Of a DNA stretch of 35,494 nt, positions 23,826 through 32,476 are shown piece by piece. Origin of the DNA: a virus (taxonomy: Duplodnaviria; Heunggongvirae; Uroviricota; Caudoviricetes); the IMG/VR virus record IMGVR_UViG_2531839180_000004, positions 1 to 35,494 of that record; one strand, given 5' to 3'. Positions within the stretch are counted from its first letter, which is position 1. The number at the start of each line of letters is the position of its first letter. The translations under genes and the position numbers were made by a program. The notes beneath the pieces were generated by a model. The model saw nothing but the letters and a program-made list of their open reading frames with translations. It was not told the DNA's origin and did no database searches.

Positions 23826-25025
23826 ATGGCTTTTACAAAAATCAGAATCGATAATCTGTTTTGCTTTGAAAATAGCATCCTTGACTTAAGCTTCTCCAGA
23901 CCCCCGATCAACAGCTCACTGGAAGGTGAGTACATTGATGGATTTGAAAAGTTCTACTTCAAAAAGGTTTGCATCGTTTCTGGTGCTAATGCATCTGGTA
24001 AAACATCTCTTGGTCGCGTGATGCTTTCTGTGTTGCGTTTTCTCAGTAGTGGTGTTTTCAATCCAGAACCGTTAAAAATTACTGACAAAAGAAAACCTGC
24101 ATATATAGAGGTTGACTTTTTCCAGAGTCATTTAAAATGTTTGTTTAGGGCAGGTGTCTGGCTTAGGGCTATGGATGAGTCTGTTGTTGTAGAAAAAATT
24201 GCAATGGCATCTGTTGATTTAAGAAGCTCGGAATCATGCGCAAAGACGACCAAAAGATTGGATGCTGTGTGGGATGCGCAAAAGTTTGAATTAAATGGTC
24301 AAAATAGATTTTTTTCAACCGAAAACGCTAACTCAAAAGAATTTTCCCAATATTTAGAGGATTTGGACTTTGTTCTTGGTTGGCATTTCATTCTATCTGA
24401 AAACCAAGAGAACACGGATAAAATATCACGAATTAAGAAGAATGTGCTTAATAGCATATTAAAAACCTTTGACAATACTGTTAAATCTGTCTCAGGACTC
24501 ACTCTTAAAGATGATGAGGGAAAGGAGGATTTGCAGGGTTATTCAGTAGTCTTCAATAATGGAGATAGAGTTATTATTGATATGGAAGGTGATATAACAA
24601 ATAAAGATAGACTGTCTCGTGGTACTTATGAGGCAGTAAAAATATCCCATCTCCTGTCAGGAGTGCTTGAAGATAAAATAGAAGAGCGAGAGTTCAATTT
24701 CCCTTGCAGTGGGGTGTACTTTTTGGATGAGAAAATGGCCTTCACTCATACTGAATTAGAAAAAATGATGGTCACGCTGATTATATCTAAGCTTTGCAGA
24801 TATGGTCAATTTATATACACCACACATAATTATGATATCTTGAGCTTAGATCTGCCTACGCATTCATATACTTTTACTAAAAAAGTAGATGGTGTAACCA
24901 CTTTTGTTGAAGCTACCACACATCATAAAAAGAATGATCGCAATCTTTTAAATAAAGTAAAAAATGACTGTTTTGCAACAATACCTGACGTTTCATTAAT
25001 CGAAGAGATGCTATTTGAGGATTGA
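23826..25025 (+). CDS. ABC-type/AAA_21-like ATPase (cargo, candidate defence ATPase)
   Basis: Walker A GANASGKTS, Walker B VYFLDE, H-loop-like TTHN. AT-rich. AAGGTGG Shine-Dalgarno before the ATG. Confidence 0.85.
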   Translation: MAFTKIRIDNLFCFENSILDLSFSRPPINSSLEGEYIDGFEKFYFKKVCIVSGANASGKTSLGRVMLSVLRFLSSGVFNPEPLKITDKRKPAYIEVDFFQSHLKCLFRAGVWLRAMDESVVVEKIAMASVDLRSSESCAKTTKRLDAVWDAQKFELNGQNRFFSTENANSKEFSQYLEDLDFVLGWHFILSENQENTDKISRIKKNVLNSILKTFDNTVKSVSGLTLKDDEGKEDLQGYSVVFNNGDRVIIDMEGDITNKDRLSRGTYEAVKISHLLSGVLEDKIEEREFNFPCSGVYFLDEKMAFTHTELEKMMVTLIISKLCRYGQFIYTTHNYDILSLDLPTHSYTFTKKVDGVTTFVEATTHHKKNDRNLLNKVKNDCFATIPDVSLIEEMLFED

Positions 25026-25027
25026 TT

Positions 25028-25564
25028 ATGGCAGTTAAGAAATTTGCTATTATTCTTGTTGAGGGAGATACGGAAAAAGCATTGTTTCAGGATTTCAAAA
25101 CATTGCTAGGCTATCCTATTAAGAAAATAGTAATTGCTAATTTATGGAATGTTAATATAAATAAATACATGCCAGCATTAACCGAAAATAGCGAAATCAT
25201 AGTGGTTTTTGATACGGATAGGATTGAGAATCTTGATAGATTTAAGAATAATCTCAATCTATTAAAGGCGAAAAAACACACAATCCACCTATTTCAACAA
25301 ACAAGCAATTTTGAGGATGAGCTTGCCAATGCTTGTGGTGTAAGTAATAGAAAGTTGTATTCTTGTTTTTGCCCAAAGATCATTTCTGCAGATAACTTCA
25401 AGAATGAATTCATTGCGCTGCGCAACAGGATGATGAAATTAGATGGACTTGGACTAAATAAAACGTTGCTTTGGAGTAGAGGGATTATCCCCCAATTGAG
25501 AGATTATAATTTTCATGTTTCCTCTCATGATGATTATTTTTATAAAAATAATAGTCCTCATTAA
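25028..25564 (+). CDS. Toprim-like small protein (RloB/DUF4276-like) coupled to the ATPase
   Basis: N-terminal FAIILVEGDTE and VVFDTD acidic motifs match the Toprim/OLD-type pattern. ATG 2 bp after the ATPase stop with a GAGGA Shine-Dalgarno. AT-rich. Confidence 0.7.
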   Translation: MAVKKFAIILVEGDTEKALFQDFKTLLGYPIKKIVIANLWNVNINKYMPALTENSEIIVVFDTDRIENLDRFKNNLNLLKAKKHTIHLFQQTSNFEDELANACGVSNRKLYSCFCPKIISADNFKNEFIALRNRMMKLDGLGLNKTLLWSRGIIPQLRDYNFHVSSHDDYFYKNNSPH

Positions 25565-25991: not shown

Positions 25992-26951
25992 TTACTCCTT
26001 GTCCATTGCGTACAAACCATTGACCAGAGCAAACTGTGGCACCCCGTCCGCGATGAAAGTCGCATTAACTCCGCAGGCTTCGCGGATAGCGGGTGCCACA
26101 ATCTCCGCCCCTCCACCGACAACCATCACCCGCCCGTAACCCGAAAAACCCGCCAGCGCGCGGATCACTCGTTGTTTCAGTGTTTCTTCCTTTTCACGAA
26201 TAACCGCCATCAGGCTGTCGTAATGCGCGTCATTGTGGATGTGCTGGCGCAGCCAGGCTTCATCATGGCGATGTTCGATAATGGTATTGGCGATGTGGTG
26301 ACTGGTGCGCATACCGTTAGTGGCCATCACCGACAGTACGGCATCGGCCATCAGAGAAACGCCTACGTGTGGATCGCAAAACACCTGGCTGATACCTGCC
26401 AGTTACCCCTGAACCTTTGCCACATCCAGCGTGGTTCCGCCCAAATCCACAATCAGCAGGGATTCAAACGGACTCATGTCAGCCAGTGCCTTAAAGCCAG
26501 CCGGAATGGATTCAGGCATAACCCGCACGTTACGGATAGTGAATGCTTCGCCGTTCTGGTACTCCACCGGGCGCATAACGTTCGCTTTTTTGCGGTTGAT
26601 GTTGGCCATGTCCGGCTGTGCGTTTGTGTCGAAATACTCGCTCAGTGGCAGGGTGACAACCACATCCACCTCCTGTGGCGTGATGCCTGATTTGACCAGC
26701 GCGTGATGAATGGCAATGACATTCACATCGCTGTATTGGTATTGCGTGTCGGTCGTCTGGACAAAGCGATCGCTGACCGGATCAAAACCATAGCGCACGC
26801 CATCAAGCATGTAGTTCGCGGGCTGCGTGCCACCGAACGGCGCAGACCATTCCGACTTGAAGCTGTTCGGGCTGATGGCGTTGCGGCGTTCGCCGTTCTC
26901 AGTCCATGCCAGCTTGATGTTGGTGGAGCCGTCGTCGATACAAATTTTCAT
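25992..26951 (-). pseudogene. ParM/StbA-like actin-type segregation ATPase interrupted by one in-frame stop codon
   Basis: MKICIDDGSTNIKLAW...DLGGTTLD...VMVVGGGAE is colinear with plasmid R1 ParM. ORFs 26403..26951 and 25992..26384 are in the same frame, separated by a single TAA and six sense codons. Confidence 0.8.
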
Positions 26952-29856: not shown

Positions 29857-30222
29857 TTACTCCGCTTTGCCGCTCAGTGCGTCGTGGCAGACGGCAGCCA
29901 GCCGCTGAATTTCCAGTACGGTGTATTCTGTGTTGGCATGGCGGTGTGTGATGCGAACGCTGTCAGCTATCACATCTGCAATTACAGATGACAGTCGCTG
30001 GTAAATGCCAATAACGTACGGATTACCACCTTCAACACGGTAAAGCCTGTAATTGCCCTGGTGGCTGTCAATCATGTAACGACCATCAATAACAATCTTT
30101 CCGTCAGCAAGCTGTGGTGCAGGCAGGGATTTCAGATACATGTCGTAACGCTCACGCACGCGAACGGCAAGATCACGCTCTGTGTTGAGCAGGTATTCAA
30201 GAAAGTCGTTGGCGAGAATCAT
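29857..30222 (-). CDS. hypothetical early protein upstream of A
   Basis: 121 aa from the internal Met with an AAGAGGA Shine-Dalgarno; its stop abuts the A start. Confidence 0.5.
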   Translation of the reverse strand: MILANDFLEYLLNTERDLAVRVRERYDMYLKSLPAPQLADGKIVIDGRYMIDSHQGNYRLYRVEGGNPYVIGIYQRLSSVIADVIADSVRITHRHANTEYTVLEIQRLAAVCHDALSGKAE

Positions 30223-30294
30223 TGCGGCAATCCTCTTGTTACAGATGTGCGAAGGCCTCCCGCCGCAAGGTGCAGGAAAGGCCAAGAACAGGAA

Positions 30295-30525
30295 TTAATG
30301 GAGTTTGTTTTGCTGCTGGATGAGCTGCTGAAGCTCGCGCAGATCATCCGCCAGATAGCTAAAAACAGAGGCGGAATAAGTGTTTGATAGCGCATGACTG
30401 CGCTCATGCAGCATATTGATGTGCATGATTTGCGCGACGCGTGATGCGCGGAAAAGTCTGCGGTTGATTTCAGTCTGGATGTGACGACGCGCAGCGTATG
30501 CGCGCTGTTGTTTGCGGTTTGCCAT
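30295..30525 (-). CDS. hypothetical small basic protein (76 aa)
   Basis: Intact ORF co-oriented with A; function not recognised. Confidence 0.45.
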   Translation of the reverse strand: MANRKQQRAYAARRHIQTEINRRLFRASRVAQIMHINMLHERSHALSNTYSASVFSYLADDLRELQQLIQQQNKLH

Positions 30526-30700
30526 GGGGTGGCCTCTTTGGTTGTAAGTTTTGAAAACTCACCATCCAGAGCTGCGAAACTGTGGGTGGCGAGACGTACG
30601 AGGTTCGCAGTACCGGCAACCAAAGAACCCGGCCCGACCGAAGTCGGCCCCGTACGCCCCACCATAATTCGTGTGCGAAAAAGACGTGGCAATACAGTAC

Positions 30701-30725
30701 GCACAAAAAAACCGCTGGCGCGGTT
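30701..30725 (-). terminator. intrinsic terminator on the - strand between the SPFH operon and the A operon
   Basis: AACCGC-TGGC-GCGGTT stem-loop with an A7 run on the + strand, giving a U-tract immediately after the stem on the - strand RNA. Confidence 0.5.
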
Positions 30726-30862
30726 GTGCGCTTTGGTTGTCAGCAGGCTGCGAAACCCGGCACCCGTTTTATGAGGTGCAGCGGAAATGTAACCTGACTG
30801 ATTGCGGCATGGCAAGCGGTTTTTTTGTGAGAACGGCATACTAAAAAATCCTGATACTGCTC

Positions 30863-30887
30863 CGGCCAGCGATTTTCACTGGCCGGG
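30863..30887 (-). terminator. terminator-like hairpin immediately downstream of the SPFH gene
   Basis: CCGGCCAG-loop-CTGGCCGG 8-bp stem; the U-tract lies about 13 nt away, so it is not canonical. Confidence 0.3.
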
Positions 30888-30892
30888 TTTAA

Positions 30893-31723
30893 TTACTTCA
30901 CCGGAACAAACGGAACAGCGGTATTACTGGTCATGTATTGCGGCAGCGTGCCGTTCCATTTGTTGATAGCTTCCAGCTCCATAACGCCGGGATTCTGGCG
31001 CAGAGCTTCACCACGCAAACGAATGGCATCGGCTTCAGCCTGGGCTTTTGTACGAATGGCATCAGCCTGTCCGGCAGCTTCTGCGCGCAGCATGTTGGCT
31101 TCTGCTTCGCGTTGCTTGACTTCCTGCTCGCGTTGCAGAGTTTTCTGGTTTGCCGTGACTTTGGCATTAATGCTGTCGATAACGGTTGGCGGGTATTCCG
31201 GCTTACCCACATAAGAGAGGCTCATGACCTGAATGCCGATGGGGGTCATCTCTTCCTGAATATCTTTAAGTGCTGAATCCAGTAGTTCAGACTTACCACC
31301 GTCGATAAACTTATCGGTGGTCATTTTGCTGGCCAGTCGGTTGAGTGCATCGGCGATCTTCTGGCGCAGGTCAGTGTCGGTAATGTCATCCACGCCTTTG
31401 CGGTAGGTTTGAAACACTGTAGTAACTTTGGATGAATCAACCTTGTAGGCCACACCGATGTGATAGCCGATGGTTGTGCCGTCACTCATCTGGAAGCTGA
31501 ACGGCTCATCGTAAGTCTTCATTTGTTTGAAGGTCGGGAAGATGTAAACCTCTGTATTCCAGCCTGTCCAGTAGCGGCCAACGCCAACCACTTCACCGAC
31601 GCCTTTGTCGTCGCCCAGTTTGTTGACTTTGATGCCCACATTACCTGGCTCAACGCGATCGCAGCCAACCAGCAGGATGGCTGCAAAAATCGGGAGAATC
31701 TGAAAGAGTTTGAATTTCTTCAT
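30893..31723 (-). CDS. SPFH/band-7 (stomatin/HflC-like) lipoprotein
   Basis: Signal peptide with lipobox LLVGC, followed by a band-7-like core and a Gln/Ala/Glu-rich coiled-coil tail. Confidence 0.8.
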   Translation of the reverse strand: MKKFKLFQILPIFAAILLVGCDRVEPGNVGIKVNKLGDDKGVGEVVGVGRYWTGWNTEVYIFPTFKQMKTYDEPFSFQMSDGTTIGYHIGVAYKVDSSKVTTVFQTYRKGVDDITDTDLRQKIADALNRLASKMTTDKFIDGGKSELLDSALKDIQEEMTPIGIQVMSLSYVGKPEYPPTVIDSINAKVTANQKTLQREQEVKQREAEANMLRAEAAGQADAIRTKAQAEADAIRLRGEALRQNPGVMELEAINKWNGTLPQYMTSNTAVPFVPVK

Positions 31724-31923
31724 TGTTTGATTTCCTTGATGTACTTACTGAAAAGGCGAACAACGCCTGCCGGGTACAGCATGGCAATGAAAATGCCCAG
31801 CAATACCAGGAAGGAGCTGTCTGATGAGATCATTCGGGGGAGTAGTCCTGCATACAGAATGAGAGATATGAGGACGCATACCAGCGCCCACATGTATGCG
31901 CGAAACCAGGTCTTTTTGTTCAT
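31720..31923 (-). CDS. small two-helix membrane protein (NfeD-like partner of the SPFH protein)
   Basis: 67 aa with two hydrophobic segments; its stop overlaps the SPFH start. Confidence 0.6.
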   Translation of the reverse strand: MNKKTWFRAYMWALVCVLISLILYAGLLPRMISSDSSFLVLLGIFIAMLYPAGVVRLFSKYIKEIKQ

Positions 31924-31934
31924 ATCGCGGTCCT

Positions 31935-32234
31935 TTACTGGTTAAGGAAAAAATCAAAAACCTTGTCGATGCGTTGCAGTAGCTCTCGTTGCATTGCTTC
32001 CGGCGTTTCTGGTTCACCAGGCGAACCCAGTGGTGCGCAGAAATCAGCGATTTCATGATGGAGCGTCAGGCGAATGGCTGGAGCCATGGTTCTGGTGTGC
32101 TCCAGCTCATCCAGCAGTGCCAGCACGGCAGATGGCGAGAGCATTGCGCGAAACGCCAGTAATTTTTGATGCGTTGCCATTCGTTGCAGGTCAGTCGCCA
32201 GTTCGCGTAGTTCCTGGTAGTTGATGGTGCTCAT
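31935..32234 (-). CDS. hypothetical early protein (99 aa, acidic)
   Basis: Intact ORF in the early operon. Confidence 0.45.
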   Translation of the reverse strand: MSTINYQELRELATDLQRMATHQKLLAFRAMLSPSAVLALLDELEHTRTMAPAIRLTLHHEIADFCAPLGSPGEPETPEAMQRELLQRIDKVFDFFLNQ

Positions 32235-32476
32235 GCTCTGGCTTCCTTCAGTAGCTGGTTAAACATGTTGGTAAGTGGATTGCCGCACCCGAACGGCATC
32301 GGGTTTATCTGGTAAGAAAAGCGACCGCCTGTTTTGCGCTCTTTTCTTATGACCGAACCGCTACGCCAGAGACGGCGTAACTCCGTGTTAATGGTTGTGG
32401 TTGGGGTATTCAGTGCTGCGGCGATTTCTCCACCGCTACACCCCGGATTGGCGGCGATATAATCAAGAATGGTCAT
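32231..32476 (-). CDS. small winged-helix-like DNA-binding protein
   Basis: 81 aa; GGEIAAALNTPTTTINTELRRLWRSGSV resembles a wHTH recognition region. Confidence 0.45.
   Translation of the reverse strand: MTILDYIAANPGCSGGEIAAALNTPTTTINTELRRLWRSGSVIRKERKTGGRFSYQINPMPFGCGNPLTNMFNQLLKEARA

Follow-up and report, generated by a model that had tools for sequence, protein, structure and literature searches.

An SPFH-domain lipoprotein and a small membrane-hairpin partner form a mobile two-gene cassette in the early operon of a P88-like prophage

We analyzed a 35,494-nucleotide (nt) stretch of DNA (hereafter, the window: IMG/VR record IMGVR_UViG_2531839180_000004, positions 1 to 35,494), which is a prophage of the P2 family and of P88 type (genus Xuanwuvirus); its positions 30200 to 32300 match phage P88 itself at 94.9%. 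Our subject is a pair of overlapping genes in the early operon of this prophage, one encoding a 67-amino-acid (aa) membrane hairpin protein and the other a 276-aa lipoprotein with an SPFH (band-7) domain. The segment bearing the two genes is a mobile accessory cassette, situated between an Ead/Ea22-like gene and an RNA immunity cassette. As a whole, the evidence is best explained by a mobile cassette whose exported SPFH lipoprotein and hairpin partner serve an early function in the cell envelope, a reading to which we assign a probability of roughly 0.55.

RESULTS

A mobile two-gene cassette

The pair lies in an insertion of about 1.1 kb with clean junctions, bordered on one side by the first few bases past the stop codon of the Ead-like gene and on the other by the conserved sequence CACAAAAAAACCGCTTGCC (all feature coordinates are collected in Table 1). 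Phages P88_4B11 and vB_EcoM-569R5, along with other sister phages, match both flanks and lack the pair. Among 5,426 complete Escherichia coli genomes, orf142, the 76-aa gene, and the RNA cassette that lie next to the insertion occur in 874, with the pair at this site in only 145, such that most P88-like prophages of E. coli are without it; the copy in E. coli STEC388 is 100% identical to that in the window. An earlier reading of this DNA, made from the letters alone (the sequence-only reading), had regarded the pair as accessory cargo inserted into the early operon, a view that is upheld both by its absence from sister phages and by its occurrence in lambdoid and P1-like phages at 87 to 92% DNA identity (see below). 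In being variably present among collinear phages and in having moved between unrelated ones, the pair shows the first of two properties expected of a moron.

Two further properties of the insertion were considered and set aside. The site does not appear to be a hotspot for multiple cargos, as the Ead-like gene abuts the RNA cassette, with no other cargo, in three sampled empty sites and in P88_4B11 (a small sample); and there is no compositional anomaly, the GC content of the insert (0.505, against 0.521 for the window) being unremarkable.

Table 1. Features of the cassette and its surroundings (positions refer to the window)
Feature	Position	Strand	Description or basis
SPFH/band-7 lipoprotein gene	30893..31723	-	276 aa; Pfam, PHROG, AlphaFold2, Foldseek, likeness to N4 gp20, dN/dS
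Lipobox codons L18-V19-G20-C21, then Asp22	31661..31672	-	Sequence
SPFH domain, residues 23-209	31097..31657	-	Pfam envelope; beta-rich SPFH1/2 plus helices in model
Single Ala/Glu/Gln/Arg-rich helix, residues 178-242 (65 residues), then short helix and conserved K-W-N-G-x-L-P tail	30998..31192	-	AlphaFold2
Partner gene, 67-aa hairpin protein with two transmembrane helices	31720..31923	-	Open reading frame, ATGA overlap, PHROG 1130
Inserted segment (approximate)	30836..31932	-	Three-way alignment of window, P88, and P88_4B11; empty sites in three E. coli prophages
GC-rich hairpin right after SPFH stop codon	30862..30886	-	Fold -21.8 kcal/mol, z -4.9
Early operon, in order: cox, small open reading frames, MarR-like winged helix-turn-helix gene, Ead/Ea22-like gene, pair, RNA cassette, 76-aa gene, orf142, gene A		-	
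Promoter-like site TTGCCA-N18-TACATT	30786..30815	-	Consensus match only; just upstream of IsrK 5' end, just downstream of insertion
IsrK-family RNA (= seqA of P4), adjacent to the pair and not part of it	30705..30779	-	Rfam RF01394, 65.9 bits vs gathering score 50
Target sites in IsrK-like RNA	a1 30748-30754, b1 30731-30739	-	Covariation with C4 loops
Second promoter-like site TTGCCA-N17-AATTAT, before C4	30664-30692	-	Consensus match only
C4-family antisense RNA (= CI RNA of P4)	30582..30669	-	Rfam RF01695, 82.8 bits vs gathering score 45
Downstream target sites a2 30572-30578, b2 30536-30544	30536..30578	-	Covariation; b2 overlaps Shine-Dalgarno of epsilon-like gene
76-aa derepression (P4 epsilon-like) gene	30295..30525	-	Pfam PF25738 "Derepression", 30.9 bits vs 27

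The SPFH lipoprotein

The sequence of the larger product identifies it as an SPFH protein that carries the signal peptide of a lipoprotein. Its sole Pfam match is Band_7 (PF01145; E = 2.5e-30, 106.3 bits versus a gathering score of 23.6, profile positions 2 to 176 of 176), which confirms the band-7-like core that the sequence-only reading had proposed and had made contingent on such a profile hit. The protein also matches PHROG 200 "lipoprotein" (E = 1.9e-111). At its N terminus, the signal peptide MKKFKLFQILPIFAAILLVG precedes Cys21 in a lipobox L-V-G-C, with Asp at position +2, and conforms to the bacterial lipoprotein pattern of a signal peptide ending in [LVI][ASTVI][GAS]C. In Enterobacteria, Asp at +2 signals the retention of lipoproteins in the inner membrane (the "+2 rule"). 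Asp22 is conserved across four lineages, some relatives being anchored by a transmembrane (TM) helix instead. A lipobox-like pattern occurs in at least 69 of 86 diverse relatives, and among the 17 that the pattern misses, a lipobox-like Cys is still seen in several, and several others are anchored by an N-terminal TM helix and have no Cys.

An AlphaFold2 monomer model of the protein, built with the alignment of these 86 relatives (mean predicted local distance difference test [pLDDT] of 89.8), comprises a beta-rich SPFH domain, a 65-residue helix spanning residues 178 to 242, a short helix, and an extended tail in which W255, G257, and P260 are invariant or nearly so among relatives. The long helix aligns in Foldseek with the wall helix of cage-forming SPFH proteins, and full-length matches extend to HflK/HflC, prohibitin, erlin, stomatin, and QmcA-YbbJ (E values of 1e-14 to 1e-8 over 260 to 290 columns), with Foldseek probabilities of 1.00 against HflK/C, prohibitin, erlin, stomatin, QmcA, and flotillin (245 to 300 columns). 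As modeled, the full-length protein has the architecture of SPFH proteins that assemble into rings or cages, HflK/C among them.

By sequence, HflK and HflC come closest among both solved structures (HflK, E = 1e-4) and NCBIfam models, although scores are far from those of equivalogs (TIGR01932, 25 bits versus a cutoff of 134; TIGR01933, 23 bits versus 159), and whereas HflK/HflC consist of two paralogous SPFH subunits with N-terminal TM anchors, there is here one SPFH gene with a lipobox signal peptide. The likeness to the HflK/HflC cage, which modulates FtsH (PDB 7VHP/7VHQ, 7WI3, and 9CZ2), encompasses the SPFH domain, the long wall helix, and the C-terminal cap region. The SPFH domain of HflK/HflC faces the periplasm from the inner membrane, and we infer the same orientation for the phage protein, which differs from them in its low identity (~17%), single gene, lipid anchor, and separate 67-aa hairpin partner.

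A label of "serine protease," which has spread through annotations from phiP27, was rejected: the protein is without a protease domain, and a weak match to a PHROG "protease" (E = 4.6e-4) covers the helical tail.

The hairpin partner

The start codon of the 276-aa open reading frame (ORF) overlaps the stop codon of the 67-aa ORF as ATGA, and an AAGGA Shine-Dalgarno sequence precedes each ORF. The two genes are translationally coupled, as the sequence-only reading had recognized along with the lipobox and the two hydrophobic segments of the smaller protein. Positive charges at both ends of the latter predict an N-in/C-in topology. A conserved motif, L-L-P-x-M-I-S-S, marks the end of the first TM helix, and the protein matches PHROG 1130 "membrane protein" (E = 6.9e-23) and no Pfam family.

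The sequence-only reading had likened the partner to NfeD, an identity that we discard: for the 67-aa protein and three homologues, the Pfam search gave no NfeD match at E ≤ 10 and only subthreshold noise from TM hairpins such as RseC_MucC (E = 0.02), and the partner consists of two TM helices only. Because the protein is only 67 aa long, there is no room in it for the soluble domain of NfeD. As in SPFH-NfeD operons, the SPFH gene is adjacent to, and coupled with, a membrane-protein gene. QmcA faces the cytoplasm, whereas the phage SPFH protein is predicted to be exported. The likeness to QmcA-YbbJ (PDB 8Z5G) and YqiK-YqiJ lies in the coupling of an SPFH gene to a small membrane-protein gene and in the fold match to QmcA; the difference is that the phage partner lacks an NfeD domain and is encoded upstream of the SPFH gene.

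The pairing itself is widely kept. Upstream sequence sufficed for a census at 163 related viral loci. At 158 of these, a small TM ORF directly precedes the SPFH gene, ending at, or within a few bases around, its start, and the motif P-x-[LMFIV]-[IVL]-S is present at the end of the first helix in 146 of the 158, with variants such as PTMLNSS and PTMMSS in most of the others. All five exceptions are rV5-like contigs, and in the one inspected, the partner is encoded one small gene further upstream. A motif-bearing hairpin also accompanies an SPFH gene of 53% identity in a replication module, between the genes for SSB and PolA, and another of 42% identity. Among 14 distant relatives with N-terminal extensions, 8 match the motif pattern and 4 more carry variants recognizable by eye, and one relative bears the motif hairpin as a C-terminal extension; such extensions, which are from metagenomic proteins and may be merged ORF calls or recoded stop codons, are used here as evidence of linkage only. 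The partnership characterizes the closer subfamily, reaching to about 40% identity, but does not extend to all SPFH lipoproteins of phages (see below for the most distant ones).

Distribution, mosaicism, and selection

The same two-gene module, with the same order and overlap, is present in P88 (gp11/gp12, NC_026014; partner 97% and SPFH protein 99% identical) and in the virulent podovirus N4 (gp19/gp20, NC_008720), where it is located in the left arm after the RNA polymerase II (RNAP II) genes. N4 gp20 is 62% identical to the SPFH protein (E = 5e-127) and gp19 is 28% identical to the partner (E = 2e-8). The P88 and N4 records annotate the pair only as "membrane protein" and "lipoprotein," and we found no published function for either version. 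In N4-like phages (N4, L175:1669-3093; Moo19, L172:2388-3834; L numbers denote loci of our collection), the pair lies directly downstream of a gene annotated as "superinfection exclusion, similar to P22 gp17."

At the DNA level, phages of other types carry the mature SPFH coding region as well: identity is 92% for Stx2-converting lambdoid phages (where it adjoins int/xis), 91% for phiP27, and 87% for P1-like phage-plasmids (where it sits between ban and upl/plp). Of the 5,426 complete E. coli genomes, 535 (~10%) have the SPFH gene, and 199 of its places are on plasmids. An exhaustive profile search recovered 216 clusters (at the 50% identity level) at E < 1e-30, and by tblastn, the protein occurs in 384 of 50,697 phage records, which represent phages of many hosts. 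Strictly virulent carriers include N4-like phages, the rV5-like PVP-SE1, and Felix O1-like, Bruynoghevirus, phiCbK-like, crAss-like, and Lak phages.

Between lineages, similarity breaks off at the junction of signal peptide and mature sequence. Signal peptides and partners are lineage specific: the partner measures 67 to 70 aa here and 78 aa in P1-like phages (44% identical), and that of Stx2 phages (62 aa) is of the same design but gives no similarity by BLAST. Yet in four enterobacterial lineages whose signal peptides are unrelated, the mature protein begins with the same C-D-R-V-E-P-G. Over 240 mature codons, ratios of nonsynonymous to synonymous substitution rates (dN/dS) between lineages are 0.023, 0.010, and 0.058, with dS ranging from 0.4 to >2, which amounts to very strong purifying selection on the mature SPFH domain, a domain that has moved among P2-like, lambdoid, P1-like, and SSU5-like phages.

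Two observations on this region stand by themselves. The mosaic joint falls exactly at the boundary of signal peptide and mature protein (31661 to 31723 in the window; loci L003, L004, and L111). In a widespread plasmid-borne variant (protein P0115, from a cluster on 175 contigs of ~110 to 250 kb), the lipobox Cys is replaced by Tyr (GIIGYDRVEPG); as judged from this substitution, the variant would escape lipidation and might remain anchored through a signal peptide that is not cleaved.

Transcription of the pair

Only 8 bp separate the stop codon of the Ead-like gene from the ATG of the partner, and a consensus scan found no promoter-like site on the minus strand between 31924 and 32500. Since the pair has no promoter of its own here, it would be made by read-through from the early promoter (Pe) after infection or induction and not in the quiescent lysogen; most simply, it is part of the early transcript, which is repressed in the lysogen. 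Across phages, the SPFH gene is found in a range of early or replication neighborhoods: the P2 early operon, between SSB and PolA genes, after RecA, next to ban, and in the N4 left arm after RNAP II.

A GC-rich hairpin follows the SPFH stop codon directly; it lies within the segment that P88_4B11 lacks and is conserved in P2-like copies only. This hairpin is not a canonical terminator because its T-run (30843 to 30848) begins 13 nt past the stem. The strong minus-strand terminator that the sequence-only reading assigned to the pair does exist as a hairpin followed by a T-run (AACCGC-GCCA-GCGGTT, 30710 to 30725), but it is not the pair's own. Rather than directly following the gene, it is located ~170 nt downstream of the SPFH stop codon, in the middle of the intergenic interval, where it forms the terminator stem of the IsrK-family RNA described below; the insertion does not include it, and P88_4B11, a phage without the pair, has the identical terminator. 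A self-contained unit is found in the SSU5-like lineage (L111), where an upstream terminator and a promoter-like TTGAAA-N17-TATCAT precede the partner and SPFH genes, followed by a canonical terminator. The second property expected of a moron, namely, flanking by its own promoter and terminator, is therefore seen only in L111 and not in the window, so that the description of the pair as a membrane-acting moron holds for its presence or absence as cargo but not for its transcription.

Proposed function and alternatives

In the reading that we favor, the SPFH protein would be exported, lipidated at Cys21, and retained at the inner membrane, on its periplasmic side, by Asp22; retention at that membrane is suggested because Asp occupies the +2 position and because there are relatives in which an N-terminal TM anchor occurs with no lipobox Cys. 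The protein would oligomerize to cover a patch of membrane with a ring or cage like that of HflK/C, and the hairpin protein would supply the TM component, as the N termini do in HflK/C and as NfeD does for QmcA. Made early in infection, the pair would act in the envelope to the advantage of the infecting phage. We favor a part in the infection cycle itself over lysogenic conversion because the family is common in virulent phages and co-located with early genes. As for the specific function, exclusion of superinfecting phage DNA at the inner membrane is a possibility that we hold tentatively; membrane stabilization or the timing of lysis is doubtful, as is the capture or modulation of FtsH-type membrane proteolysis, and what is left of the probability falls to some other role. 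Superinfection exclusion and lysis timing are also the candidates named in the sequence-only reading, and our results speak neither for nor against them.

Small envelope proteins that exclude other phages, such as T4 Imm and Sp, T5 Llp, phi80 Cor, TP-J34 Ltp, and P22 SieA, are often lipoproteins, are often early, and are often variable cargo, and the pair resembles them in these respects only: none is an SPFH protein, and none has sequence or profile similarity to the pair. One version of the exclusion idea, to which we give a low probability, has the hairpin and SPFH cage sequestering FtsH or the channel for incoming DNA and thereby blocking superinfecting phages or membrane-acting abortive-infection effectors.

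Several points weigh against the favored reading. We found no published experiment or functional study of this family, which is mentioned only at the level of annotation. The SPFH protein has no match in PADLOC-DB v2 to a known defense system, the partner having only a chance-level one (E = 0.008 over 20 residues); this leads us to reject a known system, though not a defensive function. Oligomerization, membrane location, and contact with the partner are predicted from homology and sequence rules; the effect of Asp at +2 can be modulated by the +3 residue (here, Arg), and the +2 residue itself varies outside Enterobacteria (T, S, G, and others). A highly sequence-specific interface between the two proteins is not evident because the partner and signal peptide are swapped as one unit while the mature domain stays ~97% identical. 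The most distant subfamilies differ in what lies upstream, with a soluble-protein gene in Felix O1-like phages and a single TM helix in Bruynoghevirus, and since the partner is missing or different in these phages, it may not be obligatory. Finally, a promoter may lie within the Ead-like gene, where a consensus scan could miss it.

Among competing accounts, the pair might be a mimic of HflK/C, in which an SPFH ring of phage origin takes the place of host HflK/C, or competes with it, around the periplasmic domain of FtsH and so alters the turnover of membrane or regulatory proteins, e.g., phage regulators or phage membrane proteins. HflK and HflC are indeed the closest proteins by both sequence and fold, with the same inferred periplasmic orientation, and such mimicry has been suggested, at the annotation level, for another prophage SPFH protein (PMC4936722). 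However, the similarity is far under equivalog cutoffs (25 bits versus 134 to 660), there is a single SPFH gene and not a K/C pair, a lipid anchor replaces the TM helix that contacts FtsH, and the family occurs in phages with unrelated regulatory circuits as well as in virulent phages with no lysis-lysogeny decision, all of which makes this account rather unlikely. We are similarly skeptical that the pair guards the integrity and energization of the inner membrane during the latent period, or restrains the holin, leading to later lysis and a larger burst. Its location alongside early and replication genes and its presence in virulent phages would fit, and N4, which carries the pair, reportedly has very delayed lysis and large bursts (a lead for this account and not a test of it); but the pair never adjoins holin, endolysin, or spanin genes in the loci examined and is dispensable in most P88-like prophages.

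Two other accounts would detach the pair from the infection cycle or return it to a familiar operon type. If expressed from the prophage, the lipoprotein could aid the bacterial host through fitness, envelope stress tolerance, or virulence. The self-contained cassette with promoter and terminator in the SSU5-like lineage, the polymorphic presence of the pair, and its variable site between ban and upl/plp in P1-like phage-plasmids are all in keeping with lysogenic conversion, as is an HflK/C-like prophage protein of Pasteurella multocida that was reported to act as a virulence factor via TLR1/2 (PMC9872710) and that may or may not be homologous to this family; with the pair here lacking a promoter of its own inside a repressed early operon, and with the family common in strictly virulent phages, we consider this improbable. 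Most improbable is a classical NfeD/SPFH scaffold operon ending at its own strong terminator, which would cut gene A off from the early promoter. A membrane partner is typical of SPFH genes, and there is a hairpin with a T-run at the place in question, but the partner contains no NfeD domain, and the terminator is that of the IsrK-like RNA, outside the insert and identical in phages without the pair. Moreover, in Gifsy-1, the IsrK terminator is partly read through by design, as part of the mechanism (PMC4825925).

The adjacent IsrK-C4 antisense cassette

The 367-bp interval between the SPFH stop codon and the 76-aa gene (30526 to 30892), which had been described as a noncoding gap of ~370 bp, holds two RNAs, one of the IsrK family and one of the C4 family. 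It constitutes an IsrK-C4 antisense switch of the P4/P1 type; independent of the SPFH pair, the switch precedes a gene whose 76-aa product is 33% identical to P4 epsilon (E = 1e-8). The first of two promoter-like sites, just upstream of the IsrK-like RNA, is identical in the window, P88, and P88_4B11. The C4 RNA has a predicted fold of -44.9 kcal/mol (z -4.1), with a loop b' (30617 to 30625) and a single-stranded a' (30604 to 30610).

Both b' and a' are complementary to two sets of target sites, one in the IsrK-like RNA (a1/b1) and one downstream (a2/b2), and we examined their covariation across 36 distinct P88-like versions of the RNA region (16 pairs per target pair; 576 cells for a2/b2). 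For a1/b1, pairing holds in 99.5% of cells, with compensatory changes in 11 of 16 pairs; for a2/b2, the corresponding values are 99.0% and 10 of 16. When the partner is slid by 1 to 3 columns, pairing is 24 to 50%, with controls for a2/b2 reaching at most 47%. By eye, the alignment contains about twelve b-types and five a-types combined in several ways and, by analogy, this variety is the pattern of heteroimmune specificity known from the c4 system of P1/P7.

The closest known arrangement is the immunity region of satellite phage P4 (seqA, CI RNA, seqB, and epsilon), which has the same order of isrK, C4, and an epsilon-like gene; according to Barquist et al. (PMC3632133), the two RNAs are equivalent to P4 seqA and the P4 CI RNA. 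The immI region of P1/P7 (c4, icd, and ant) is alike in that C4 loops are complementary to upstream sites and to a downstream ribosome-binding site, with covarying specificity types. Unlike in P4 and P1, the cassette here resides in a P2-type, helper-like phage, and downstream are orf142 and the rolling-circle gene A, not an alpha primase. No homology was found between orf142 and P4 orf151. From the layout of the sequence, the switch would gate the epsilon-like gene and, by position, orf142 and replication gene A. Gating of transcription into A, as proposed in the sequence-only reading, is hence reasonable, but the gate is an RNA switch of known type and not a terminator belonging to the pair. 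We found no paper describing an IsrK-C4 switch of this kind for P2-like phages, and recent surveys of these phages mention neither SPFH proteins nor a derepression/antisense cassette.

The RNA cassette is seen in the window (30526 to 30840, minus strand) and in loci L001, L002, and L005 to L060. In one P88-like variant (L053:4913-5203), a C4 b' loop of type UGUAGUUG is combined with b1 and b2 targets of type CAACCAAAG, a mismatch that could represent a recent recombinant that escaped, or lost, this arm of control. An ORF of 205/206 aa (window 30219 to 30839, minus strand; L002:2520-3137) spans the RNA cassette and the 76-aa gene in another frame and is publicly labeled "transcriptional regulator" or "ash family protein"; this call is probably spurious and hides the RNAs.

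Other cargo in the window

Two overlapping genes on the plus strand (23826 to 25564) match AbiLi (399 aa, E = 1e-27, with an AAA_15 ATPase domain) and AbiLii, an OLD-like TOPRIM protein (180 aa), and form an AbiL-type antiphage pair, apparently at the position near gene A that is occupied by the old/tin cargo of P2. On the minus strand (25992 to 26951), an actin-like segregation gene of the ParM/StbA type, which is unusual for an integrated P2-type prophage, appears divided between two ORFs of 182 aa (StbA_N) and 130 aa (C-terminal half of ParM) and is probably a frameshifted pseudogene.

DISCUSSION

The pair is already in public annotation, as P88 gp11/gp12 and N4 gp19/gp20, and has gone unstudied; it is a variant of the theme of an SPFH protein plus a membrane partner. 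Existing annotations of the SPFH gene conflict, labeling its product a "serine protease," a "lipoprotein," or an "SPFH protein." Rereading the interval next to the pair corrects a further annotation, in that an antisense immunity switch with many specificity types lies behind a probably spurious ORF of 205/206 aa.

The pair offers a compact and genetically tractable system in N4 and in P88-like phages. If real, an SPFH assembly that is lipid anchored, faces the periplasm, and has a minimal partner other than NfeD would widen the picture of SPFH cages beyond HflK/C, QmcA-NfeD, prohibitin, and flotillin. Should the less probable proposal of a cage that sequesters FtsH or the DNA channel also prove true, the pair would represent a new class of SPFH-based exclusion or counterdefense, common to temperate (P2-like, lambdoid, and P1-like) and virulent (N4-like and rV5-like) phages.

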